Shown here piece after piece: positions 7,222 to 64,000 of a DNA stretch of 64,000 bases; the first letter of the stretch is position 1; each line of letters opens with the position of its first letter. The position numbers and the translations under genes were made by a program. This DNA comes from a virus. Taxonomy: Duplodnaviria; Heunggongvirae; Uroviricota; Caudoviricetes. The notes beneath the pieces are model-generated. The model was given only the letters and a program-made list of their open reading frames with translations. It was not told where the DNA came from and did not search any database. The stretch lies in the IMG/VR virus record IMGVR_UViG_3300028048_001599. One strand, given 5' to 3'.

Positions 7222-7232
7222 TCATCAGTAAT

Positions 7233-7263
7233 AGACCGTCCTTAAATATTTAAGGACGGTTTT
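7233..7263 (+). terminator. Rho-independent terminator after ftsH
   Basis: ACCGTCCTTAAA-TA-TTTAAGGACGGT followed by TTT. Confidence 0.8.
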
Positions 7264-7284
7264 AAATTTAGTTAGCACATGGTA

Positions 7285-7313
7285 TTGACATTTTAAGAAA
7301 AATATGGTATAAT
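7285..7313 (+). promoter_or_regulatory. Consensus sigma-A promoter with extended -10
   Basis: TTGACA(7285)-N17-TATAAT(7308), TG at -15/-14. Confidence 0.85.
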
Positions 7314-7319
7314 TATATG

Positions 7320-7450
7320 TAATAATGGGTAAAATAGAGGGGTATAGCTCGATTTTACGCCTGTGAAGTTAATAGGTTACGAGAACGATGACGTAGGAAG
7401 TTCATTGGCTTTAGACAATGTGTAGTTCACATAGTAGCTATTGTGAGCGT
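7320..7450 (+). ncRNA. Stand-alone IS200/IS605-type TnpB omegaRNA-like scaffold (IS right end) plus putative guide
   Basis: GATTTTACGCCTGTGAAG ... GTAGGAAGTTCATTGGCTTTAGACAATGTGTAGTTCAC resembles the 5' motif and terminal hairpin + GTAGTTCAC end I recall for IS605/IS1341 omegaRNAs. No tnpB is adjacent and it lies directly behind a promoter. Confidence 0.6.
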
Positions 7451-7480
7451 TATAATCAAAATCAAAGAAGGTGATACATA

Positions 7481-9271
7481 ATGTTATCCTATAACAATCT
7501 AAAGAAAATCAATTTACTCAACAAAGAAAACAAAGTACCCTCATGGAGGGTGTCATCATATGGTGTTTCTTTGAGTGTATACTCTGAGTTTTGTTGTATA
7601 ACACGTGGTTCATCTGTGGAACGTATTAAAATCCAGAAATTAATACAAGCTGTGGAGCAAAATAAGATTCATATTCAAAATATAAGTATTCTTAGGAATT
7701 GGATAAATAGTAGAGATGGTCAGGATTCACCTGTTGACAGTGTATCTGTTTACACAGGAAATACTCTTAAAACTCTTGTGGATAACGACTTAAATGATAT
7801 CACGGCAGAACGTGACTTCGTTTCAAGTATATACAAGTATGTAACAAGTAATAGAAATGAAGTTATGGGGGTACATGGACTCCGTGGTGTTGGAAAATCT
7901 ATAGGTCTTATGCAAGTCATAAGGTTGTTAAATGACTTTGATAATACGGTTTACCTTGTAGTAAATCCTGAACAATCATTAGATTACAGCGACTTTTATA
8001 AGTTATTATTTTCAGTTACAAAATATCGAAAATATATTTTTATTGATGAAATCACTTATGTATCAAATTTTATAAATAAGTCAGCAAATCTATATGAAGC
8101 ATTAGTTTTAATGGGTAAACGTGTAGTAATTTGTGGCACTAATTCATTAGCTTTGGTATCTTCTAAATCAGCAGCATTGTACCATAGAATAGGGATATTA
8201 CCTGTTTCTTTTATGTCTTACTTTGAAGCAAAGCGAACTGCTCACATTTCAAATTTTATTGAATATTTGGAGATGGGTGGACTTTATGATAAAGATAGAC
8301 TTGGTAGCTTTTCAGATTTGGAAAATTATATAGATACTTCAGTGGTTGATAATATTGTAGGCACTCTCAGTAAGAACATGGTAACAAGTCATTTGGCGGC
8401 ATTGTATAATTTGTCAATCACTTCTAAAAACATCGGATTAGTCAAGCAGCGAATGAAAACAATTATTTTTAAGATACTATTTGATATTATATTTTCACTC
8501 AGTAAATCCGATATAAAAATAGATATGAATATACTACCGTATTTATTTAATTCATACAGTAGTAGTTCAGACATATATGACACAATAGGGATTGAAAATA
8601 GCTCAATAGGGGTATATGAAACAAGGGTTGTTTTAAAGGCACTTTATGAAATTGGTCTATTAAATAAGGTCGAGAATATAGCAAAATGTGGTGAGTTTAA
8701 GTATTATATTACAAACCAATCTGTTTATAATCAGATGTTATGTCAAATAGTAAACATACCATTTAGAGATGGTTACAGCTTAAACGAGTTTCGTGGTGTT
8801 AAAAGTCGATTGGGTCTACTAATGGAAAGTGCAGTAATAAACCACACGTATGAGATAGTCAGAAAAATGAAGGATATCTCGATATATTATTATCGTGACG
8901 GTAATAAGGAAATTGACTTAATAATTCGTAGACATGTTTATGATTTAGATGACTTAGATAATTATGATAAATACCTATATTATGAAATAAAAATATCATC
9001 AGATACGGCTTATGCATCTATAAAGGCTCAATGGATAACTGATAAATCAATAGGGTCACCTGAAAAGGTTGTAGGTAGGGCAGTAATTTATAACGGTATT
9101 ACAACAGTATATGATGGGGTAACAAAGCCGAAGAAATCAATACCTAATATGTCAACCGAAAAACAAACTCAAATAATGCAAAGAAACAAAGGTTTACAGT
9201 TTATAAATGTCGAGGATTACCTAAGAAATTTACCGTCTTACATTGATGATTTAATGAACGCAAAGTTCTAA
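7481..9271 (+). CDS. AAA+ ATPase (AAA_14/DUF4143-like) with C-terminal nuclease-like motif
   Basis: Walker A GLRGVGKS, Walker B YIFIDEI, C-terminal YYYRD-x3-EIDLI...YEIK typical of DUF4143-type domains. Confidence 0.75.
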   Translation: MLSYNNLKKINLLNKENKVPSWRVSSYGVSLSVYSEFCCITRGSSVERIKIQKLIQAVEQNKIHIQNISILRNWINSRDGQDSPVDSVSVYTGNTLKTLVDNDLNDITAERDFVSSIYKYVTSNRNEVMGVHGLRGVGKSIGLMQVIRLLNDFDNTVYLVVNPEQSLDYSDFYKLLFSVTKYRKYIFIDEITYVSNFINKSANLYEALVLMGKRVVICGTNSLALVSSKSAALYHRIGILPVSFMSYFEAKRTAHISNFIEYLEMGGLYDKDRLGSFSDLENYIDTSVVDNIVGTLSKNMVTSHLAALYNLSITSKNIGLVKQRMKTIIFKILFDIIFSLSKSDIKIDMNILPYLFNSYSSSSDIYDTIGIENSSIGVYETRVVLKALYEIGLLNKVENIAKCGEFKYYITNQSVYNQMLCQIVNIPFRDGYSLNEFRGVKSRLGLLMESAVINHTYEIVRKMKDISIYYYRDGNKEIDLIIRRHVYDLDDLDNYDKYLYYEIKISSDTAYASIKAQWITDKSIGSPEKVVGRAVIYNGITTVYDGVTKPKKSIPNMSTEKQTQIMQRNKGLQFINVEDYLRNLPSYIDDLMNAKF

Positions 9272-9298
9272 TATAGTAAACAAAAAGAAGGAATAAAA

Positions 9299-10177
9299 AT
9301 GACAGAACAGGATGTTAAAACATTAAGGGACACGGTGTTACTGTTAAAAAGTCATTCAGTCACATCGGTTCTGAAATACCTATTAAGTGATATGTGTACA
9401 AACTCAAAGTGTGACCATTGTTATTTTGAGGACGATTGTGATAGTGTAGTTGGGGTATTTGACAAAACAACAAAAATCATGAGTAATTTAGATATGAAGT
9501 TTACATCTGGGGTGTTGTGTCATTCACCCACAGACTTGATAGACTACCCATCAAAGTATAACGCACTTTTAGGAACTACTGTTCAATATATGTGTCAACT
9601 TTATCATTACCAAACAACTAAGGAAATAATTTTTAATGACCTTTTGGCACATGTACCAAGTAAGGTAGATACTCAAGCTGTTATTGAAGCTCTTAGTCAT
9701 GTTACCAACGATATAAACGATTACAGTTCTGTTCGTTGTTTGTTTAAGGCGAGTAGTTTAATACATAGTTTTGATGTTGACAAAATTCCAAATAGTATAA
9801 TATGGGTGGCAATTGAATTAACTAAGCGTTGTGCATCATTCTTAATGTCAAAAGGTTCAATGTACTTTAATAAGCATTTGTTTACCAATTGTAACTATAT
9901 TAATAGTGGGGTAGTTGATTTCAACGGTGATAATGTAGTAATAGACATGAAATGTACCAAATATGAACCTACACTACAAGATAAATGGCAAATCTTAATA
10001 TACGCTGGTATACTTAAGGCATATTATAAGTTTGATATCACTACGGCTTACTTTGTAAATCCTGTTCTTAACAAGTATTATTATTTTGAATGTGAAAAGT
10101 TAAATCATACGGAGGCTATAAAAATTCTTGAAGCATTAACCTTAAACACTGCTGAAAATATTATAGTAAACAGATAA
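9299..10177 (+). CDS. PD-(D/E)XK (RecB/Cas4-like) nuclease-domain protein
   Basis: C-terminal GVVD...VIDMK...QILIY matches RecB-family motifs II/III and QxxxY. N-terminal Cys cluster CxxxxCxxC. Confidence 0.6.
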   Translation: MTEQDVKTLRDTVLLLKSHSVTSVLKYLLSDMCTNSKCDHCYFEDDCDSVVGVFDKTTKIMSNLDMKFTSGVLCHSPTDLIDYPSKYNALLGTTVQYMCQLYHYQTTKEIIFNDLLAHVPSKVDTQAVIEALSHVTNDINDYSSVRCLFKASSLIHSFDVDKIPNSIIWVAIELTKRCASFLMSKGSMYFNKHLFTNCNYINSGVVDFNGDNVVIDMKCTKYEPTLQDKWQILIYAGILKAYYKFDITTAYFVNPVLNKYYYFECEKLNHTEAIKILEALTLNTAENIIVNR

Positions 10178-10195: not shown

Positions 10196-10224
10196 TTGAC
10201 AAAATACGACAAATATGTTATAAT
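10196..10224 (+). promoter_or_regulatory. Consensus sigma-A promoter with extended -10
   Basis: TTGACA(10196)-N17-TATAAT(10219), TGn present. Confidence 0.85.
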
Positions 10225-18469: not shown

Positions 18470-19855
18470 GTGGAGAAAGACTATGTTAATTTCTTGGAGA
18501 GTTGTTTAAACAAGTATGATACCGACTCTTGGAATGGTGATGGACTTACAATATTAGATACTTTAGGTTCTTTATCAGAACCAGTTCGTAAAGGTAATAT
18601 TCAAGTTTTTCGTAATCAATCAATTGATATATTTGGTAATGACCGTTTAGTAGCAACACCCGACTCATTGGGGGTATCTGAAGAAGAATATGAATCACTA
18701 AAACAAAGTATGTCATTTTTAATGGGATATGACCCCTGTTGTGGAGATGATACAAAATTAGAAATTGCTGACACTTCACAGTTTGATTCTTACTCAGAAA
18801 GAGACCTTGAGGAAGAACCATATACAATTGAAGAAATGATGGAAGATGAATCTGAGTTTCCAAATACATATGAGGAATATGACGAGGACGATGAAGATGA
18901 TGAAGATAGAGAAGAGTCCGATTATAACTTTTCTAATGATGAGGACGATGAAGATGATATTGTCGATGATGAAGACTTTTTAGATGTTGAAAGTACAGAT
19001 GATGATTTTCCAGACAACTATGAGGAACTCGATGACGATGACTTTGATGATTCTGATGATGACATCTCTGAGGATGAGGACTTTTTAGATGTTGAAGACA
19101 CTGACGATGATTTTTCAGATAACTATGAGGAAATTGATGACGACAGTGAGGAATCTGAGGATAGTGAAGAATACGATGATACTGATGAATTTCCTGACAA
19201 CTATGAGGAAATAGACGAAGACGAGGAAGATGAAGATGACTTCGACTTCCCAGATGAGGACTACGAGGAATCCGATGATGAGGACTCGGAGGAAGATGAA
19301 GATGACTTCGACTTCCCAGATGAGGACTACGAGGAATCCGATGATGAGGAGGAAGAATTTGACGACTTTGATTTTCCAGATGAATACGAGGAGTTAGACG
19401 AAGAAGATGAGGAAGAGGACGATGACTTTAAGTCACCAGATGAGGACTATGAGGAATTGGATGATTTTGAGGATGAAGAGGATGAGGACTTTGATTTTCC
19501 TGACGAGGACTACGAGGAGTCTGATGATGACGAGGAGTCTGAGGAGGATGACGAGTTCAGGTCACCTGATGAAGACTTGGATGATTTTGAGGACGAAGAT
19601 GACGAGGACGATATTCCTCGAAATCAACATTCCAGTGACTTAGGCGAATTTGATGGACGTCCACAAAATAATATTAATACAAACGGTTTAAATAGGAATA
19701 CGGGTGGTATAAATTTATCACCATCTCCTATAATTAATAAAGAAAGTAGTTCAGATAAATTAGCAAATAGTCTTGTAAAGGTTCTGAAAGTACCTGGGGC
19801 AACCAAAAGTTTCTTTGGTAGGTTTATTATTTCGGACGATGATACAGAAGATTGA
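18470..19855 (+). CDS. Extremely acidic Asp/Glu repeat protein
   Basis: GTG start after AAGGAGG. About 270 residues almost entirely D/E with a recurring (F)DFPD(E/N)xYEE unit. Confidence 0.8.
   Translation: MEKDYVNFLESCLNKYDTDSWNGDGLTILDTLGSLSEPVRKGNIQVFRNQSIDIFGNDRLVATPDSLGVSEEEYESLKQSMSFLMGYDPCCGDDTKLEIADTSQFDSYSERDLEEEPYTIEEMMEDESEFPNTYEEYDEDDEDDEDREESDYNFSNDEDDEDDIVDDEDFLDVESTDDDFPDNYEELDDDDFDDSDDDISEDEDFLDVEDTDDDFSDNYEEIDDDSEESEDSEEYDDTDEFPDNYEEIDEDEEDEDDFDFPDEDYEESDDEDSEEDEDDFDFPDEDYEESDDEEEEFDDFDFPDEYEELDEEDEEEDDDFKSPDEDYEELDDFEDEEDEDFDFPDEDYEESDDDEESEEDDEFRSPDEDLDDFEDEDDEDDIPRNQHSSDLGEFDGRPQNNINTNGLNRNTGGINLSPSPIINKESSSDKLANSLVKVLKVPGATKSFFGRFIISDDDTED
19223..19350 (+). repeat. Exact 62-bp direct repeat (66-bp period) within the acidic repeat array
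   Basis: GAGGAAGATGAAGATGACTTCGACTTCCCAGATGAGGACTACGAGGAATCCGATGATGAGGA at 19223 and 19289. Confidence 0.9.
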
Positions 19856-23242: not shown

Positions 23243-26200
23243 GTGTTCAAAGACATGAGTAAATTAATTAAGGACTTTATGGAAAAGTGGTCTACACGTG
23301 GTAGTGAAAAATCAGAGTCACAATCGTATTGGATTGAGTTATTACAAACATTGGGGGTACAGAAACCCACTAACTTTATTCAATTTGAGAAGACTGTTAA
23401 GGATGGTAGGAACACAATTTATATTGATGGTTATATTCCAAAAACGAAGGTTCTAATTGAAATGAAGTCATCAACAATAAATCTTGACGATAAACTTGTA
23501 CAGTCTAATGGGGACAAACTCACTCCATTTGAACAAGCACAGAAGTATATTGTGCATCTTCCTCGTTCAGAGCATCCACGTTATGTTGTAACATGTAATT
23601 TTAAGGAAATTCGTGTATATGACATGGAGAATCCTAATAATGCACCAGTAAGTATATTTATCAACGAGTTGAATACACAGTCTTACCGTCTTTCATTTTT
23701 AATCAAAGAGGACAATGTACACCTTGAGCGTCAGGTCAAGGTATCAAAGGAGGCTGTTCAGCTTATTTCTAAATTATACGATGCATTTTCGAAGCAATAT
23801 AAGACGATTAACGAGGAGACATCAAGAAATCTCAATATTCTTTGTGTACGTATAGTATTTTGTTTATTTGCAGACGACAGTGGATTGTTTGAAAAGAACC
23901 AGTTCATCAACTTTATTCAAAATAGCAACGTAGGTCTTGCGCGTCAAAACCTTATAAACTTATTTAAGGTACTTGATACAGATGAAAAAGACCGTGACCC
24001 GTATGACACATCAGGTATAAATAGTTTTCCATACGTAAATGGTGGACTTTTCAAAGAAGTTATAACAATACCAACTATTACCGAGGACATGTTAGAAACC
24101 CTTGTCACAGTAGCTGAGTTTGACTGGTCACAGATTAGTCCTACGATATTCGGTTCTATTTTTGAGAGTACATTGTCTGCAAAGCGTAGACACGAAAATG
24201 GTATGCACTACACGTCGGTAGTCAACATTCATAAGGTAATTGACAATTTGTTCCTTGACGAGTTCTACGCTGAGTTTGACCGAATAAGGGGTATAGAGCG
24301 TAAGACACTTCGTAGTTTGGAGTTAAGGAAATTTCAGATGAAGCTTGCTACATACAAGTTTCTTGACCCTGCCTGTGGTTCAGGTAACTTCTTGACTGAA
24401 ACTTATACATGTATTCGTAGACTTGAAAATGAAATTATACGTGAAATCCGTAAGTGTGACACATCACTTTTTCCATCCACCGAGTCACCTATTAAGGTCA
24501 ACATTCATCAATTCTATGGTATCGAGATAGATGATTTTGCAGTATCCGTAGCAAGAACAGCACTATGGATAGCTGAGGCACAAATGTTTGAAGAAACAAA
24601 GGACATTGGTTTTGATATTGACTTTTTCCCACTGAAGTCAAACAATAACATTGTAGAAGGTAACGCACTGCGTATTGATTGGGCGGAAGTCGTAGGAGGG
24701 GTAGACACATTAAATTACATTATAGGTAACCCACCGTTCTTAGGTTCTAAGAAAATGTCAAAAGAGCAGCATAGTGAAGTTAATTCTATTTTTGATAAAA
24801 AAGAATGGAGCAGATCGGGAAATTTTGATTATGTACTTTGTTGGTTTAAGAAAGCTGTCGATATGATGTTAAAGAATAATAAGATAAAGGCGGCACTTGT
24901 AGCAACTAATTCAATATGTCAAGGTGAGCCAGTAGGGACTTTTTGGAAAAGGGCAATAGGTTTAGGTATTAATATCAATTTTGCATATACATCATTTTTG
25001 TGGGATAACGGGGCAGATTTGGAGGCGTCAGTTTTTGTTGTTATTGTAGGGTTTGATACTAATAATGAAAGTAACAAATATATAATAGACAGTAATGGTT
25101 TTGTTTCAGAAGCTAACAACATAAGTCCATATTTAATAGATGCTGACGATGCAATAGTTGAAACTACAAATGTTCCATTATGTAATGTACCTAAGATGTC
25201 GTTTGGTTGTATGGCTTATGACGATGGATATTTGTCAAAAATCAGTGTAGAAGATAAAAAGGATATATGTAATAAATATCCTGAGTCAGAGAAATATTTT
25301 AGACGTATATTAAGTGGTTTAGAATATTTGCATAATAAGGAAAGATGGTGTTTATGGTTAGAAGATGTGGAAATTGATGAATTAAAAGGTATACCTCCCA
25401 TATATGAGCGTGTGGAGAGTGTTAGAAGTTATAGATTAAGTAGTAAAAGCAAAGCAACATTTGAAGCAGCTCATACACCTACGTTATTTTTAATACGTAA
25501 GCAGCCAAGGAGTAATTATTTAGCTGTTCCTATGGTGTCATCTGAGAAAAGAAAATATATACCAGTAGAGTATATGACAAATGATGAAATTGTATTAAAT
25601 ACGATTTATTATATTGAGGATGCACCAAAATGGTTATTTAGTATAATGACAGCTGACTTACATACAATTTGGGTTCACTTGGTATGTGCAAGGATGAAAA
25701 AAGATATTCATTATTCAAGCACAATATGTTATAATGCATTTCCATTTATCACACCAACACCTGAAGAAGAAAACAAACTTACAGAACTTGCAAATAACAT
25801 ATTACAAGCTCGTGCAAATCATCCTAATAAATCACTTGCAGACTTGTACGACCCTGAAAATATGCCTGACGACTTGCGTAAAGCACATAAAGAAAATGAT
25901 ATCTACGTGCGTAGTCTGTATGGTTTTAAACCCGACGATACAAAGGAGCACATTCTTGCAGGACTTCTCACTTGTTATAAAGCACTGTCTACAGGTCAAA
26001 TTCCCGAAGGTTGGATAAATGTTAAGAAAACAAACTTTGTCAATAAGGAACTTGAGAAACCTGTGACACGTGCAATTAGTATAATAAGTAAGGCTAAATC
26101 TATTGTAGACCATAGAATATCTGAACTAAAACCTACAGATAATACATATGGTATGTTATCTTTTATATCGAATAAACTTAAAAACTTTTACAGTATTCTC

Positions 26201-26806
26201 ACAACTGTAGATTTCACTCCGAAAAATATGAGGAAAATAGTAACAGGGGTAGAAAAGATAGTATCACTTGCTGTTCCATCTAACTCAAAGTCACTTCAGG
26301 ATACTGCTAAGTCCTTTGAAGACATCTTGAATAATTATGAAGCCGACATTGATTATGATTACAGTACTCGTCTACTTAAACTTGTGTCTATGTTGGACTC
26401 ACTTGTTCAGATAGATACACCTGTATCGATGTCTGACTTGCGTTCAATATTAGGTATCGAATCGGAGGATGGTATAACAAATAAGTACTTCCTTAGTGAC
26501 GGGGTATCGGGTTTATTACTTGAAGATATTCAGACAGACCTTAACACTATAACACTTACCGTATCTGATGGTAGTCCTGTTCATGATTATTTATCACAGT
26601 TAATTCAAGGTAAAGCTCTTAATATGTCAACATCAACTATTTTATATGTAGCTCAGGACACCGGTTCTCTTGATTGCTTAGCTTCAAAATACGGGGTAAC
26701 AATAGTTATAACCGAAGAAAAAGGCAATAAAATCACAGCAACTATAGTAATAAATGGCAAAATCAGTGATGTATTGTTTTACTTAGACAATAATAAAGAA
26801 ATGTAA
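23243..26806 (+). CDS. MmeI-family type IIL/IIG restriction endonuclease-m6A methyltransferase with extra C-terminal extension
   Basis: N-terminal nuclease IDGYI...LIEMK, MTase motif I FLDPACGSGNFL, motif IV NPPF, GMHYTS, TRD and MmeI-type SLADLYDP...LRKAH, then about 260 extra residues. Likely ATG 23255. Confidence 0.9.
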   Translation: MFKDMSKLIKDFMEKWSTRGSEKSESQSYWIELLQTLGVQKPTNFIQFEKTVKDGRNTIYIDGYIPKTKVLIEMKSSTINLDDKLVQSNGDKLTPFEQAQKYIVHLPRSEHPRYVVTCNFKEIRVYDMENPNNAPVSIFINELNTQSYRLSFLIKEDNVHLERQVKVSKEAVQLISKLYDAFSKQYKTINEETSRNLNILCVRIVFCLFADDSGLFEKNQFINFIQNSNVGLARQNLINLFKVLDTDEKDRDPYDTSGINSFPYVNGGLFKEVITIPTITEDMLETLVTVAEFDWSQISPTIFGSIFESTLSAKRRHENGMHYTSVVNIHKVIDNLFLDEFYAEFDRIRGIERKTLRSLELRKFQMKLATYKFLDPACGSGNFLTETYTCIRRLENEIIREIRKCDTSLFPSTESPIKVNIHQFYGIEIDDFAVSVARTALWIAEAQMFEETKDIGFDIDFFPLKSNNNIVEGNALRIDWAEVVGGVDTLNYIIGNPPFLGSKKMSKEQHSEVNSIFDKKEWSRSGNFDYVLCWFKKAVDMMLKNNKIKAALVATNSICQGEPVGTFWKRAIGLGININFAYTSFLWDNGADLEASVFVVIVGFDTNNESNKYIIDSNGFVSEANNISPYLIDADDAIVETTNVPLCNVPKMSFGCMAYDDGYLSKISVEDKKDICNKYPESEKYFRRILSGLEYLHNKERWCLWLEDVEIDELKGIPPIYERVESVRSYRLSSKSKATFEAAHTPTLFLIRKQPRSNYLAVPMVSSEKRKYIPVEYMTNDEIVLNTIYYIEDAPKWLFSIMTADLHTIWVHLVCARMKKDIHYSSTICYNAFPFITPTPEEENKLTELANNILQARANHPNKSLADLYDPENMPDDLRKAHKENDIYVRSLYGFKPDDTKEHILAGLLTCYKALSTGQIPEGWINVKKTNFVNKELEKPVTRAISIISKAKSIVDHRISELKPTDNTYGMLSFISNKLKNFYSILTTVDFTPKNMRKIVTGVEKIVSLAVPSNSKSLQDTAKSFEDILNNYEADIDYDYSTRLLKLVSMLDSLVQIDTPVSMSDLRSILGIESEDGITNKYFLSDGVSGLLLEDIQTDLNTITLTVSDGSPVHDYLSQLIQGKALNMSTSTILYVAQDTGSLDCLASKYGVTIVITEEKGNKITATIVINGKISDVLFYLDNNKEM

Positions 26807-27064: not shown

Positions 27065-27373
27065 ATGAATTACTTATCTCCAATAATAGGATTGAACAGA
27101 AATCAGATATCAGCACTAAATCCTAATGATTGGTGTATATTTCAAGATTTAAGTTTCAACGGTTACAGTTATCTTTATCTTATGGTTTGTGCTCCAACAC
27201 TTCAAGGTTTTAAATCGAGACGTGAAGCTTTGGCAGTACTTACAAAGTATGGCGTTCGTAACACACGTGAGAACTCACAGCAAGTAAGAGTTGGTGTATT
27301 TACAATAAGAGAAGTAGCGAACATGTTCATGAATAAGGCATACCAAGTAGTTGGGGTTGATTTGCAGATTTAG
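27065..27373 (+). CDS. Hypothetical protein
   Basis: 102 aa, RBS AAGGAG. Confidence 0.7.
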   Translation: MNYLSPIIGLNRNQISALNPNDWCIFQDLSFNGYSYLYLMVCAPTLQGFKSRREALAVLTKYGVRNTRENSQQVRVGVFTIREVANMFMNKAYQVVGVDLQI

Positions 27374-27486
27374 GATTCTGAAAATACTTGAAAGGTGTTT
27401 ACAGAATTTTCAATTTTAGGTTTTTACGTTGTCGAAACTAACAAAATTTTGTATGTCAATTTGTTGCTATTTTTATTATTTAACTG

Positions 27487-27515
27487 TTGATTTTTTCTAT
27501 TTTTTGTTGTATAAT
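27487..27515 (+). promoter_or_regulatory. Sigma-A-like promoter of the HTH-tnpB operon
   Basis: TTGATT-N17-TATAAT. Confidence 0.6.
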
Positions 27516-27547
27516 AGAATAAATTGAAAGAAAGTGGTGAGTGGTTT

Positions 27548-27817
27548 ATGAAAAAACCTACAAAATTGCAATACTATAGGAAATTTGTGAATGGGTTTAC
27601 AGTAAACGAATTATCAGCTATAACAGGTATAACAGTAAGTTCAATAAATAAGTACGAAACAGGGGTAATGGATTTGAATAATGCATCTATTACTATTGTT
27701 AAAAGACTTGCAAGAGCATTAAATTGTACAACAGATGATTTAACAGACTCACTTGATGACATAGACAAGGGGTTGAATAGTTATGATAAGAACAGTAACA
27801 ATAAGGTTAAGACCTGA
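27548..27817 (+). CDS. XRE/Cro-C1 helix-turn-helix regulator
   Basis: LQYYRK...FTVNELSAITGITVSSINKYETG...RLARALNCTTDDL. Overlaps the tnpB start. Confidence 0.85.
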   Translation: MKKPTKLQYYRKFVNGFTVNELSAITGITVSSINKYETGVMDLNNASITIVKRLARALNCTTDDLTDSLDDIDKGLNSYDKNSNNKVKT

Positions 27818-28898
27818 TAAACTACAAAGTAATAAAATGATGCGAATAGCTGGTTGTAGTAGGTTTTGTTATAATGAACTCCTTAAATATTGGGATTCAT
27901 ATTATACTGAAGTAGATTGTAGTCCATCTGTATATGAATTGCGCGATTATGTAACAATGTTAAAACAACAATACGTGTGGTTAAATGAGTTACCATATCA
28001 CACGATGAATGGAGTAATAAAGAACTTACAGACTGCATTTAGTAAATTCTTCAAAAATAAAATTGACCATCCTTCTATACATAAGAGGAATAGTAACCAT
28101 ATATCCTTTCCCATTAGGACAGATAGGATAAAATTTTGTGGTAATGTTATAGTAATTCCGAGCATAGGAAGAATGAGATTCAAGAACATATCTAAGTATG
28201 AATTAAATGGTATAAAAACCGCGTCACTTGTGTATGATGGTTTATGTTGGTACTTAAAAATAGCAACATGTGTATATACTAACACATGTTGTCAAAAACA
28301 AGGTAAGATAGGTATAGACTTGGGGTATCGAACACTTGCAAGTGCCTACGATGGAACTGATACTTACACCTATGAAAACATAATGAATGAAGATGAGACT
28401 GAGGGTTCTGACCATATACAAAAGTTAGAAAAAAGACTACAAGTCATAGATAAAATAATCTCAGATAAAAAGAAACTCAATAAAACATCAAATAACATAA
28501 ATAAGTTATATTATAAACGTGCGAAACTAAAAAGACGTATGGCAAATATACAAAGAACATATCAGCATATTATATCAAAGTATATTATAAGTAGACGACC
28601 TATGAAGATTATATTTGAAACATTAGATATATCAGAACAAAAAGCAAAGGATAATATACTACCCAATAGATATAAATTGACTGCATTGTACCAATTCTAC
28701 ACATTTATAATATACAAGGCTGAGGAATTAGGTATACAGATTATTCGTGTTGATAAATATTATCCATCAACAAAGCGATGTTGTAAATGTGGTGCAATAA
28801 ATGAAGTTGGTGTAAGTAAGGTATATACATGTAAAAATTGTAATCTGAAGATAGATAGGGATATAAATGCTTCAATAAACTTATATAATTATGTTTAA
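27783..28898 (+). CDS. tnpB: TnpB-family RNA-guided endonuclease (IS200/IS605/IS607 OrfB)
   Basis: HTH_OrfB N-terminus (IRLRP...GCSRFCYN), RuvC-I GIDLG, RuvC-II IIFETL, zinc ribbon CCKCG...CKNC, RuvC-III DRDINASINL. Confidence 0.9.
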   Translation: MIRTVTIRLRPDKLQSNKMMRIAGCSRFCYNELLKYWDSYYTEVDCSPSVYELRDYVTMLKQQYVWLNELPYHTMNGVIKNLQTAFSKFFKNKIDHPSIHKRNSNHISFPIRTDRIKFCGNVIVIPSIGRMRFKNISKYELNGIKTASLVYDGLCWYLKIATCVYTNTCCQKQGKIGIDLGYRTLASAYDGTDTYTYENIMNEDETEGSDHIQKLEKRLQVIDKIISDKKKLNKTSNNINKLYYKRAKLKRRMANIQRTYQHIISKYIISRRPMKIIFETLDISEQKAKDNILPNRYKLTALYQFYTFIIYKAEELGIQIIRVDKYYPSTKRCCKCGAINEVGVSKVYTCKNCNLKIDRDINASINLYNYV

Positions 28899-29015
28899 TG
28901 TCTAAATAACACAGATAATAGCAATAAACAGTCGTTTCCGTAACACGACTGTATAAATTAGCCTATAACATAGGTAGGTTGCTTTCACGCAACGGTAAAG
29001 TTGATTTTTCAATAT
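28899..29015 (+). ncRNA. Candidate cis omegaRNA of tnpB (three hairpins ending ...GCAACGG)
   Basis: ACAGTCGT/ACGACTGT (28928-28952), CCTAT/ATAGG (28962-28974) and GTTGC/GCAAC (28978-28993) directly downstream of tnpB. Confidence 0.45.
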
Positions 29016-29042
29016 TTTCAATTTTATTTTACGGTGATTTAG

Positions 29043-46359: not shown

Positions 46360-47649
46360 GTGGAATTAGGATTTCACCGTAAGTATAGACCTAATACATT
46401 GGCAGAGTATGTAGGTAACACTAAAAATGTAAAATCAATATTAAAAGTTCTCAGTGGGGGTAATAGACCGCAGGTATACTTGCTTGATGGTCATGCAGGT
46501 TGTGGTAAGACTACATTTGCACGTCTTATAGCAAAGGAGTACGTATGTGAAGAACGTAGTGACGAGCATGGTGCTTGTTGTAACTGTTTCACTTGTCGTG
46601 CTATGGATGAATTTATACTGACTGGTAATTCTGAGGATTTGATGAATGTCCGGGAAATAGATAATTCAGTGTCAGGTAATAAGTCAGACATTGATGAAAT
46701 ACTTAATGATGCAGAAATACCCTCATTTGACGGCGGTTGGAAAGTGTTCATCTTTGATGAATGTCACCTCATATCAAAGGCTGCTCAGGGACGTATGCTT
46801 AAGCTCCTTGAAGAACCTCCAGAAAATGTATTACTTATTCTATGTACAACTGACCCAGATATGTTGCTTGATACAATTCGTTCTCGTTGTCAGCATCATT
46901 ATACAGTAGTAAAACCTAAATTACAAGAATTAGCTGTATTATTGAAGCGTGTGTGTCAGAAAGAAAACGTGGTTGTAGAAGATAAAGCACTAGGGGTAAT
47001 TGCAACATCAGCAGATTTTGTTCCTCGACAGGCTTTAATTCAGCTCGAAACTGTAATAAATGAAAAACACGATGTAACTTATAATAATACAATAGAGGTT
47101 CTTAACGTAATTGCAGATTCATATTATTTTGATTTTTATAAGTATCTCACACAACCTCAGATAGACACATTTTCGTATATTAACTTCTTATCGGAGTTAA
47201 AGGAGAAGCTTGATTTAAAGCAGTTTATATCAGGTCTTATAACATTCACTAATAGGGGTATCTACGTATATAACGGTGTCAATCAGCAAGGTTTAGATAC
47301 ATCAGAAATAAAACGATATCGACAAATATTCTCAAAATTTAAAACAGGTGATATAATTCACATATTAAAGTTATTAAAAACAATTCAAAAAGGTGATATT
47401 GAAACAGAGTTATTACTACTTGGGTATGAAGGTATATTTAGTAGCAATATTGAAACAATAGAAGCGAATAGGGGTACTTTATCAGATAATGGAAATTCTG
47501 ATTTAAAGAGTGAACAAAACGCCGCGGTCGAACATTATGTAGAATCTATAACTTTAACTGAAGAAGAAAAAGAACAAAAGCTTTCTGATGATGACGACAT
47601 GTCTATTGATGACTTGGCTACTATGTTTAGTGGTGAAATTGTAATATAA
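46360..47649 (+). CDS. dnaX: DNA polymerase III clamp-loader subunit gamma/tau
   Basis: KYRP, Walker A GHAGCGKTT, zinc module C...CCNCFTC, DECH, LLKxLEEPP-like MLKLLEEPP, SRC motif. Confidence 0.9.
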   Translation: MELGFHRKYRPNTLAEYVGNTKNVKSILKVLSGGNRPQVYLLDGHAGCGKTTFARLIAKEYVCEERSDEHGACCNCFTCRAMDEFILTGNSEDLMNVREIDNSVSGNKSDIDEILNDAEIPSFDGGWKVFIFDECHLISKAAQGRMLKLLEEPPENVLLILCTTDPDMLLDTIRSRCQHHYTVVKPKLQELAVLLKRVCQKENVVVEDKALGVIATSADFVPRQALIQLETVINEKHDVTYNNTIEVLNVIADSYYFDFYKYLTQPQIDTFSYINFLSELKEKLDLKQFISGLITFTNRGIYVYNGVNQQGLDTSEIKRYRQIFSKFKTGDIIHILKLLKTIQKGDIETELLLLGYEGIFSSNIETIEANRGTLSDNGNSDLKSEQNAAVEHYVESITLTEEEKEQKLSDDDDMSIDDLATMFSGEIVI

Positions 47650-61029: not shown

Positions 61030-64000
61030 ATGATTTTAAGTACAATACTTCGGGTAACACGAAATGCAGCTAGAGCAGCAGCTAAAAGTGGTAAGAAGTT
61101 AGTAAATGGGGTAGCAAGTACTAGACGTACCGTCAGTGGTGAAACTACTGACGGTAACGTCAAATCTAATGATACTTTAATGAATAAGTTCAAAACAAAG
61201 AATAAGAAGTTAAGAAAACTCAAGTCAATGAAAAAAGTAGGTAAGAGTTCTAAAAAAGTAGCTTCTAATCTTTTTATACTTGCAGTTGGTTTTGTTGAGG
61301 ACATATTATCATTACTTTTTGGTTCTGCATTAATATTTATGCTTATTTTATGTACACTCATTCCAGTTTTGGCTGTTGTAATAATGGGAACAATAGATGG
61401 GGTATCAAGTATATCGACATCAGGTGATAATTTCACTACAACAGGTGGAAGTGGAGGTGTTCAGATAACTGACCCTTCTACATATGATTGGTGGGGTAAT
61501 AAGGAACAAAATATGAGGCTTCTTACAGATGACTATGATAAAGAACTTTACCAGTTAATAATGATGAATATGGACTTAGCACAATACTCGCACAGTGATA
61601 CAAGTGTTGATAATTTATGGAATGGTACATTTGGTGTGGGTATTTTATACGCCGAAATGGGTGGTGGTATATCCTCAAAAATAGTGAATTTTCATGAGGG
61701 TACGGAAGCTGAGAAAAATCAACTTAAATATGAAAAGTGGAACTATGTATTTGCACCGTTCTGTTTGGGTTATTCATCTGACTATCTTGGTGATGGACCT
61801 GTAGGTTTATCATGGGGGTTACCAAAGAAAGATGTAAGTTATGAGTACAGTCATTATGAAATTAAAAATGTTAATAAAAAGTGGTTGGACGATAGTGCTA
61901 CTGGTACAAGTAGTTATCATGGTACTTATAATGATAATCAAAAATACGCTATATGGACGACTCCTGGTAGTTTGAAATGGTCATACTATAATACAATTGC
62001 ATATTCTTATACAGACTGGCGAACAGAAGCGTTCGACAGGTGGGGTGTTGAAAAATCTGATGAAAACTTATATAATATAGCTACATGTGATTATTATGCA
62101 AAACACCATGGACATGCAGCCGGAAATAAAGATGAAAAAGCAGTACTTGAATATATGTTAGCATTGTATAATTATGTAGATAAGGACTTAAATAATGTGT
62201 ATATTGTGGATAGTTCAGGTAAACTAGCAAAAGATGAAGGACACGCAATATATAGGGAAGTGTTAGCTAATGATTTTGGAAAGACTTCATCAAACTACAT
62301 CAAAGTAATACACGATGGCAAGGAACACACATTCAAAGGTTCAGGTGACGATTTATTGGGTAAAGCACTTTTAGATTGGGCTAAAAGTGAAAACCCATCT
62401 GGTTATAAAAAATTAAAAGAGGCTATAGATTATGGTAGCGATGGCGCACCTGGTTTCAATGGTAATACATTGTTCTCATCAAATGTAAGTAACTGTATTG
62501 GTATTTATTTAATAGGTTCAACTCTTGTGAAATATATGGTTGAAAAATTAGGTTTAACATTTGACGTTGCAACAACAGACAACAGTAACTTCCCAGGTGG
62601 TACACAGACAGCGAAGAATGTGGTAGCAGTGATGACTGATTTATATAACAAGCATGGTGCTAAATCTTCGGATAAGTGGACAATGGGATATAATCAATTA
62701 TTAAATTCTAACGGTAGTAAAGCAACTAATTTTAATACTGAGTGGTGTGCAATGTTTGTAAATACAGTACTCAATACGGCAAAGATAAACGGTAGCACAA
62801 AGACAGTAGCTCAAGGATTACACGATGTAACTAATGACCTATTCCCATCTGGTGCATGTGCCGAAATGGGGTATGGTAATTCACGTAAATATGATTCTTT
62901 GTTTACGTCAACAAGTGGACTTTCAAATCGAGCGGAAATCACAAAATCGGGGTATGTGACAGCACACTATGGTGGTCAAGAGCTTAGTGGTAAAAATGCA
63001 ACTAAAGATTATAAAGGTGAAATTAGTAAAGAATCATTATACAAGCCTAAAGCTGGTGATATAATTGTATTTTCTTTTGGAAATCATGAATTTTATGACC
63101 ATGTTGGTATGGTTCGAGAAGATAGTGAATCATTTTATACTGTAAATACAATTGAGGGAAATACAAATGATGATAATGAAAATTACGGTGCTGGTGGTTG
63201 GTTAAATACGCGAGGTTATAGTAATAGCACTAGTATTTGTATGTACCTCGAAATAAACTACCTTGCACTTGAAGAAAAATTCGGTACACCATCAATAAAG
63301 ACTGGTGGCTCTGGTGGAAAATTAGACATTAATAAATATGTTGAAACTCAGGCTAAGACGTTAGGTAACGATTCAACACTTAGTGGTTGTAGTCAGGTTC
63401 TTGATGTAGTTACATCAGGTACATCAGCGAAACTTACAGTTTACAATAAGTCTAACGGTAAATGGACAAAAGGTGGTTTAGTTGACGCTAGTGGATTCAT
63501 AGGAAAAGACGGGGTAGGTTCTAAAGACTCAAACGCTAATGAGAGTTGTTCAAAAACGCCATTTGGTGCATATTATCTTGGCGTAAACTTTGGTGGATTT
63601 GGTATTGCTCAAAGTGGTTTAAAGATTGACTGGAAGAATGTGTCGTCAAAACAATCATATTGGGGTTCGTCTAATAACTCAAAGCATTTAAACAAATTCT
63701 ATCAGGCTTCTTCGGCGGAGACGAGTGCTGATGAAAACTTAACAAGTATATGTAATAGTGGTGCTTATAAGTATTCTATACTTATAGAATATAACTACGG
63801 TAATAATGCTAAAAAAGGTGGCGGTTCAGCGTTCTTCCTACATGTAGGTAGTAACCCAACCGCAGGATGTGTAGCAACATCAGAGTCTAATATGAAGAAA
63901 ATTGTTGATTGGATAGATAAATCAAAGAAAACAAGGATACTTATTCATCCTGAGGACTCAAAAGTAATTGCTGTAGCAACAGTATCTACAGGCGGTAGTT
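61030..64000 (+). CDS. Membrane-anchored multidomain cell-wall enzyme: CHAP amidase + YkuD L,D-transpeptidase (3'-truncated by the window; missing from the ORF track)
   Basis: AAGGAGGT RBS, ATG 61030, frame open to 64000. Basic N-terminus + TM, then WCAMFV (62743)...PKAGDIIVF...HVGMV...TIEGN (CHAP), then KTPFGAY...GSAFFLHVGSNPTAGCVA (YkuD). Confidence 0.85.
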   Translation, partial: MILSTILRVTRNAARAAAKSGKKLVNGVASTRRTVSGETTDGNVKSNDTLMNKFKTKNKKLRKLKSMKKVGKSSKKVASNLFILAVGFVEDILSLLFGSALIFMLILCTLIPVLAVVIMGTIDGVSSISTSGDNFTTTGGSGGVQITDPSTYDWWGNKEQNMRLLTDDYDKELYQLIMMNMDLAQYSHSDTSVDNLWNGTFGVGILYAEMGGGISSKIVNFHEGTEAEKNQLKYEKWNYVFAPFCLGYSSDYLGDGPVGLSWGLPKKDVSYEYSHYEIKNVNKKWLDDSATGTSSYHGTYNDNQKYAIWTTPGSLKWSYYNTIAYSYTDWRTEAFDRWGVEKSDENLYNIATCDYYAKHHGHAAGNKDEKAVLEYMLALYNYVDKDLNNVYIVDSSGKLAKDEGHAIYREVLANDFGKTSSNYIKVIHDGKEHTFKGSGDDLLGKALLDWAKSENPSGYKKLKEAIDYGSDGAPGFNGNTLFSSNVSNCIGIYLIGSTLVKYMVEKLGLTFDVATTDNSNFPGGTQTAKNVVAVMTDLYNKHGAKSSDKWTMGYNQLLNSNGSKATNFNTEWCAMFVNTVLNTAKINGSTKTVAQGLHDVTNDLFPSGACAEMGYGNSRKYDSLFTSTSGLSNRAEITKSGYVTAHYGGQELSGKNATKDYKGEISKESLYKPKAGDIIVFSFGNHEFYDHVGMVREDSESFYTVNTIEGNTNDDNENYGAGGWLNTRGYSNSTSICMYLEINYLALEEKFGTPSIKTGGSGGKLDINKYVETQAKTLGNDSTLSGCSQVLDVVTSGTSAKLTVYNKSNGKWTKGGLVDASGFIGKDGVGSKDSNANESCSKTPFGAYYLGVNFGGFGIAQSGLKIDWKNVSSKQSYWGSSNNSKHLNKFYQASSAETSADENLTSICNSGAYKYSILIEYNYGNNAKKGGGSAFFLHVGSNPTAGCVATSESNMKKIVDWIDKSKKTRILIHPEDSKVIAVATVSTGGS

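Follow-up and report, generated by a model that had tools for sequence, protein, structure and literature searches.

A TnpB omegaRNA scaffold behind a perfect promoter on a rumen extrachromosomal element is probably a one-ended IS605 remnant

Among TnpB omegaRNAs of the IS605 group, ISDra2 provides the reference architecture (PMC10097598). PATE-like elements of the IS200/IS605 type carry no protein genes but still encode omegaRNAs, which need TnpB in trans (Meers et al., 10.1101/2023.03.14.532601). In addition, stand-alone trans omegaRNAs have been described as mobilised copies that function with a compatible effector of the genome in which they reside (PMC10691335). ISFba1 represents the IS607 TnpBs with a RAGATH-18-derived RNA (PMC11061315), IS607 IStrons are a further known system (10.1101/2023.11.20.567912), and the targets reported for IS607 elements are G-rich.

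Here we analyse a 64,000-nt stretch of DNA (the window) in which an original prediction had placed an orphan omegaRNA-like gene between ftsH and a gene for an AAA protein. Our preferred reading is that this locus is probably an ordinary one-ended IS605 remnant (the relic), lying in a deletion hot spot of a ~324-kb rumen extrachromosomal element. The relic shares its scaffold order with IS605 omegaRNAs (ISDra2 and the Lachnospiraceae/Ruminococcus-type copies L014, L084, L146 and L151): a 5' stem with a putative pseudoknot loop is followed by stem 2, stem 3 and a terminal hairpin with a TTTA loop. Like these RNAs it ends in TCAC and takes its guide from flanking DNA. It is unlike them in having no tnpA, no tnpB and no left end, in a stem-1 5' arm that is host sequence, and in three changed bases that are otherwise invariant. 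With PATEs (family examples L004, L008 and L144) it has in common that it is protein-less, has kept the omegaRNA right end and would need TnpB in trans. However, PATEs possess both ends and are mobile, whereas the relic lacks a left end, occurs once in the 64 kb and stands behind a host promoter. A guide scaffold without an adjacent effector is also what defines the likeness to stand-alone trans omegaRNAs, but the relic is only a candidate for this class and the sole TnpB of the window is of the IS607 type. The relic is derived from an IS605 omegaRNA and has the same build. It does not qualify as a PATE, for want of a left end, nor as a dedicated guide gene, for want of its own promoter and a demonstrated partner. 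Protein-less omegaRNA remnants have been published before and are common; among the loci with enough upstream DNA, 16 of the 55 right ends in our collection are without tnpB.

The window is part of a 323,685-bp contig (ERZ27252073, k141_446481) found in cattle and sheep gut samples, and nearly all of its long genes lie on one strand. A DnaX-like clamp-loader protein (46360-47649) shares 41% identity with proteins on 350-kb Bacillus thuringiensis plasmids, and because of this similarity we take the replicon to be a giant, probably conjugative, Firmicutes plasmid. The window also encodes an MmeI-like type IIG restriction-modification protein that is extended by ~270 aa at its C terminus (23243-26806) and a 461-aa protein with a very long, repetitive Asp/Glu-rich tract (18470-19855). 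The interval from ftsH to position 9299 is highly variable between sister elements. The cassette after ftsH (window 7222-9298; L039, L044-L062, L191-L195) combines genes for a HipA-like kinase, DUF4869, small AAA proteins, AAA_14-DUF4143 and TnpB in many ways, and weak PADLOC matches suggest a hot spot of defence or toxin-antitoxin genes. Directly behind it, a conserved 292-aa gene (9299-10177) with a C-terminal match to PD-(D/E)XK / Cas4-like nucleases is kept in every strain examined, including those without the AAA gene. The features of the locus are listed in Table 1.

Table 1. Features of the relic locus and of the TnpB cassette in the window (window coordinates).
Feature	Position	Strand	Remark
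Probable terminator after ftsH, a perfect hairpin with T tail	7235..7262	+	26-mer, self-complementary in all alleles
Native sigma-A-type promoter of the variable post-ftsH locus, separate from the transposon relic	7285..7313	+	
Native 5' leader with the G-rich ribosome site of the formerly following gene at its end	7320..7344	+	
GGGGTA motif, deletion junction from leader to relic	7339..7344	+	
IS605 right-end / TnpB omegaRNA scaffold remnant, stem-1 loop to TCAC end	7341..7430	+	
Fold-back hairpin, scaffold end with guide	7426..7446	+	Predicted; displaces stem 4 and pseudoknot strand
Flank in guide position, native to the original insertion site	7431..7450	+	Also in relic-less alleles
Accessory gene for AAA_14 + DUF4143 protein, 596 aa; its leader now contains the relic	7481..9271	+	
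Unrelated IS607-type cassette: HTH gene, TnpB (27783-28898), own downstream RNA	27357..29034	+	

Patterns derived from the 3' part of the scaffold retrieved over a hundred loci, most of which are right ends of IS605 elements with tnpA and a tnpB of 367-369 aa. The left flanks of these copies define TTGAA as the target motif of the family, with a few one-mismatch variants. A covariance model (R1) was built from 32 tnpB-adjacent right-end copies and shows well-supported helices and, joining the 5' loop to the 3' end, a pseudoknot like that of ISDra2, which is 96% paired in the family and includes one covarying pair. R1 matches window positions 7332-7430 with 80.0 bits (E 9.5e-17). This is the one real match in the 64 kb, the next one in the window reaching 17 bits; held-out family copies that are full-length and free of insertions score 103-120 bits and intact rumen copies ~111. 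Covariance-model support for the predicted omegaRNA comes from R1 and not from Rfam, in which no family matched the scaffold either at the gathering level or at E up to 10. The motifs on which the prediction was based are present, and the scaffold terminates in TTCAC at 7430. Among intact elements, rumen copies such as L084, L146 and L151 come nearest, and 79 of 89 core bases (89%) are identical between the window scaffold and L151. At the level of sequence, a genuine IS605-type right end and omegaRNA scaffold is thus confirmed.

The predicted end at 7430 is borne out by alleles without the relic (L039, L195 and run X2), in which the sequence picks up exactly at 7431. In the two of these that are readable on the other side, the preceding bases are TTGGA, one mismatch from the family motif. 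As predicted, no tnpB remnant lies upstream of the relic: a tblastn search of the window with the family TnpB matched only the gene at 27783. A left-end hairpin was found neither in the window nor in 24 sister loci, and the relic is therefore not excisable as a PATE. The term MITE-like, which had been offered along with decay, does not apply for the same lack of a left end, while a decayed remnant, only the fallback of the original prediction, is the best reading of the relic. A blastn echo at 61377, within a long ORF, was judged to be chance, and exact window-specific patterns found no match in viral and metagenome collections. Two-ended, protein-less mini-elements of the same IS605 family do exist (L004, L008, L112, L115, L130, L144); their left end lies within ~100 nt of the omegaRNA, and they are frequent in Clostridia genomes and rumen contigs.

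The perfect promoter is likewise real. It consists of TTGACA and TATAAT at a spacing of 17 with the TG extension (12/12 match), and its position places the start of the transcript, by our inference, near 7320. It is not unique in the window, as equally perfect extended -10 promoters are found at 10196 and 12693; all three lie within 5.5 kb in similar upstream context, suggesting a promoter class specific to the element. Moreover, the promoter belongs to the locus and not to the omegaRNA. The post-ftsH hairpin is conserved in all sister strains, and terminator, promoter and leader up to 7344 are conserved where different genes follow, in at least five allele types. The same promoter precedes other genes in L044, L050, L052-L054, L057 and L059, namely a gene for a HipA-like protein (271 aa; L050, L054), which is the gene that formerly followed the leader, an HTH-TnpB cassette (L057, L059), a 77-aa gene (L044, L052) and another fragment (L053). 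Conversely, eight fetched contigs carry the scaffold away from the promoter. The idea that the omegaRNA has its own promoter is contradicted by these alleles, and the relic lacks the dedicated promoter of a stand-alone omegaRNA gene.

In L044, L046, L047, L052, L191-L194 and run X3 the relic is promoter-distal and follows a truncated HipA-N-like frame, at ~1.8 kb or more from the promoter where the interval is readable (L044, L052, X3). Since the same promoter stands before other genes and the relic is elsewhere distal to it, the arrangement in the window is a derived minority allele. Its junction joins the GGGGTA of the leader to the GGGGTA at the 5' end of the relic. A loose end in an RNA run from another study (X16) points to the same fusion, in which the G run is shorter, and the fusion is hence seen in the window and probably in one other sample.

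The motif at this junction is itself unusual in its distribution. Between 708 and 63516 of the window, GGGGTA occurs 128 times on the + strand, about every 500 bp, and 0 times on the - strand (19 expected). Several deletion junctions of sister alleles in the interval between ftsH and the AAA gene, including the relic fusion, lie on or beside GGGGTA. This suggests a recombination or Chi-like role of the motif, for which our literature search found no report.

The promoter-distal alleles show an 11-nt direct repeat around the relic (L044:9847-9857 and 9951-9961). IS605 produces no target duplication. The upstream copy equals the first 11 nt of the guide and is native to the HipA-N-like frame, and only 5 of 2000 shuffles scored as high as the similarity between this frame and the empty site, which suggests that the IS inserted into a paralogous (HipA-N-like) gene fragment. 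Cleavage of the upstream copy by TnpB was considered and set aside because the copy lacks TTGAA.

The scaffold differs from L151 by ten substitutions, eight of which are changes from G/C to A/T. Three (7372, 7392 and 7394) affect columns that are invariant across the 32 intact copies, which fits neutral placement (P 0.33), whereas among the intact copies only 12 of 148 differences fall in columns of this kind. Seven of the ten changed letters are also found in intact relatives, and because the exact parent element was not found, some of the changes may predate decay. The native 5' arm of stem 1, which was presumably lost at the first deletion, is missing in each allele and with both 5' junctions; only a 3-bp substitute in shifted register remains, provided in the window by the leader. 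In the parent subfamily, stem 1 likewise has only three clean pairs. Stems 2, 3 and 4 are still pairable in the window, with a U-U mismatch in stem 4 at 7421. In the commoner allele, every helix in stems 2-4 pairs, the C-to-T changes yield G-U wobbles and no G-to-A change affects the G side of any G-C pair, while run X3 has three further changes within the terminal 8 nt. Two apparent compensatory changes were discarded, one being a family variant and the other arising from the ribosome site of the fused leader. Across nine haplotypes, 1 of 88 scaffold positions, 3 of 20 guide positions and 29 of 1791 nt of the AAA gene are variable; the diversity of 0.0025 in the scaffold vs 0.0066 in the AAA gene comes from too few sites to judge selection.

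The pseudoknot of the window allele can pair as G-C, U-U, A-U and U-G, no worse than in the parent subfamily, in competition with a fold-back of the scaffold end onto the guide (pseudoknot energies are not included in this comparison). The fold-back had been predicted as a structure that might terminate or cage the guide. It is present and strong in the window allele (-8.6 kcal/mol, the strongest among 83 right-end flanks tested), where pairing between the last six bases of the scaffold and the guide is predicted at ~95% probability, but it is not flagged as a terminator. Sister alleles reach -1.9 and -4.1 kcal/mol, and in the promoter-distal L047 allele stem 4 is predicted to form instead. 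Because the fold-back displaces stem 4 and the pseudoknot strand, the promoter-fused allele looks, in these folding predictions, less and not more competent as a guide.

The allele comparison is consistent with the following history of the relic. An IS605 with tnpA, tnpB and the target motif TTGAA would have inserted just before 7431, a junction that the empty alleles show directly. As judged from the 5' junction, a deletion may then have run from GGGGTA in the upstream HipA-N-like frame into the loop of omegaRNA stem 1, removing the left end, tnpA and tnpB and leaving ~90 nt. As the alleles show on comparison, the remnant diverged by ~11% from the parent family and was inherited together with the AAA gene; many strains have lost both. 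A minority of strains underwent a further deletion, between two GGGGTA motifs, which removed the intervening genes and placed the native post-ftsH promoter directly in front of the relic. Since then, the relic has probably been passively transcribed at the 5' end of the AAA mRNA, as its leader, with no dedicated nuclease or selected target. Two contigs from RNA libraries, which extend from the scaffold into the AAA gene as far as 7498 and 7540, are compatible with such a leader, although contigs show neither ends nor levels. Because of this limit, a drop in depth from 28.9 to 3.2 in RNA run X16 and the contig ends were not used as evidence of expression.

The original prediction offered the TnpB at 27783 as a partner, which the relic would supply with a guide. 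Both lie on the same replicon and strand, and this TnpB has three acidic RuvC motifs and no adjacent transposase. However, we classify it as IS607-type on its closest match, its GG-core ends and its own downstream RNA. Its best match of solved structure is the IS607 TnpB ISFba1 (8IAZ, E 3e-23; ISDra2, E 2e-18), and it shares 26.5% identity with the cognate IS605 TnpB. The clade is small (48-91% identity), an HTH gene precedes all fetched members, and downstream of each TnpB lies a distinct RNA of three hairpins, with ten covarying pairs and GG at its end, which is unrelated to the relic. R1 finds no IS605-type RNA at the cassette. The HTH-TnpB cassette also inserts at GG sites, in agreement with the G-rich targets reported for IS607 (PMC11061315; 10.1101/2023.11.20.567912). 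In L057 and L059, which have no relic, it occupies another GG site at a different locus, for which L053 shows the empty site. The 27783 TnpB is not the partner of the relic because it is IS607-type with its own RNA, and we regard a guide function for it as extremely improbable. The cassette resembles ISFba1 and the IStrons in its best structural match, in a G-rich target with GG core, in an RNA wholly downstream of tnpB and in a CGG end. It is unlike them in that an HTH gene takes the place of the serine recombinase, no serine-recombinase tnpA adjoining the TnpB, and in that the RNA is shorter and has no hit in Rfam, including the RAGATH-18 model. As an observation in its own right, such mobile cassettes of an HTH gene and IS607-type TnpB without recombinase are found at window 27357-29034, at L057:5170-6850 and in L040, L043 and L196; their RuvC motifs look intact, and their RNA is compact, covarying and absent from Rfam. 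Upstream of the HTH-TnpB relatives in L040 (9180-9500) and L043 (9370-9690) lies a conserved structured stretch that the window copy lacks. It may resemble a group I intron core, as in IS607 IStrons.

A partner could also be provided from elsewhere, if an IS605 TnpB of the host chromosome or of another part of the replicon loaded the relic in trans as a working omegaRNA. Such a complex would cut sister elements with an empty site and so favour the relic-bearing allele. Stand-alone omegaRNAs used in trans are published (PMC10691335; 10.1101/2023.03.14.532601), empty-site alleles exist, and most helices and the pseudoknot strand of the relic are as pairable as in its parent subfamily. Furthermore, the rumen samples in question also contain intact parent-type IS605 elements (loose ends in X2, X3 and X4), whose TnpB reading frames are open at 369 aa, and therefore a host TnpB could in principle load the relic RNA. 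Against this, the 5' arm of stem 1, with which TnpB makes contact in ISDra2 (PMC10097598), has been replaced, and in the promoter-fused allele the scaffold end is engaged with the guide and stem 4 is mismatched. The expected targets were not found either. The predicted guide (7431-7450), which is polymorphic at 3 of 20 positions, yielded only matches of E 2-6 away from the seed in plasmid and phage collections, and no match over its full length in the viral collection. It matches only the empty site in sister elements, where the TAM is imperfect (TTGGA instead of TTGAA); beyond this, nothing above chance appeared in the collections searched. A search with TAM plus 15 nt returned a single repeated sequence, shared by three viral contigs of very high AT content, that then diverges (~3 expected per 1e11 sites) and was rejected; a guide-like flank in L080 belongs to a chromosomal locus and was treated as chance. 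We consider loading in trans unlikely. Still less probable, in our estimate, is that the megaplasmid retains an immobilised IS605 scaffold in order to borrow host TnpB and cut empty-site sister plasmids. The same low probability applies to regarding this borrowing as a protein-free allelic drive on a conjugative element, acting in some strains under a strong promoter. The relic might instead act in cis, as a co-opted leader in which the remnant and its fold-back tune the stability or translation of the AAA mRNA. In all strains that carry it, the AAA start follows 50 nt downstream, and the segment 7320-7450 folds better than 200 of 200 shuffles (z -3.5), with the strongest fold-back of all flanks tested. 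This folding score is largely inherited from the omegaRNA, though, the hairpin is weak in most relic-bearing alleles, and three relic-less alleles have an intact AAA gene, and we hold a co-opted leader to be improbable as well. An ordinary one-ended remnant, as set out above, is the reading that we prefer.

Two side results appear to us of more interest than the relic: the strand-polarised GGGGTA motif at deletion junctions, and the clade that combines an HTH gene with an IS607-type TnpB. Should the relic work in trans after all, a mobile element would turn a transposon nuclease of its host on its own kin without encoding any protein for it. For orphan omegaRNAs, a caution follows from this locus. 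A perfect promoter in front of such a scaffold is no evidence of a guide gene; here, the comparison of strains shows the pairing to be a product of deletion.
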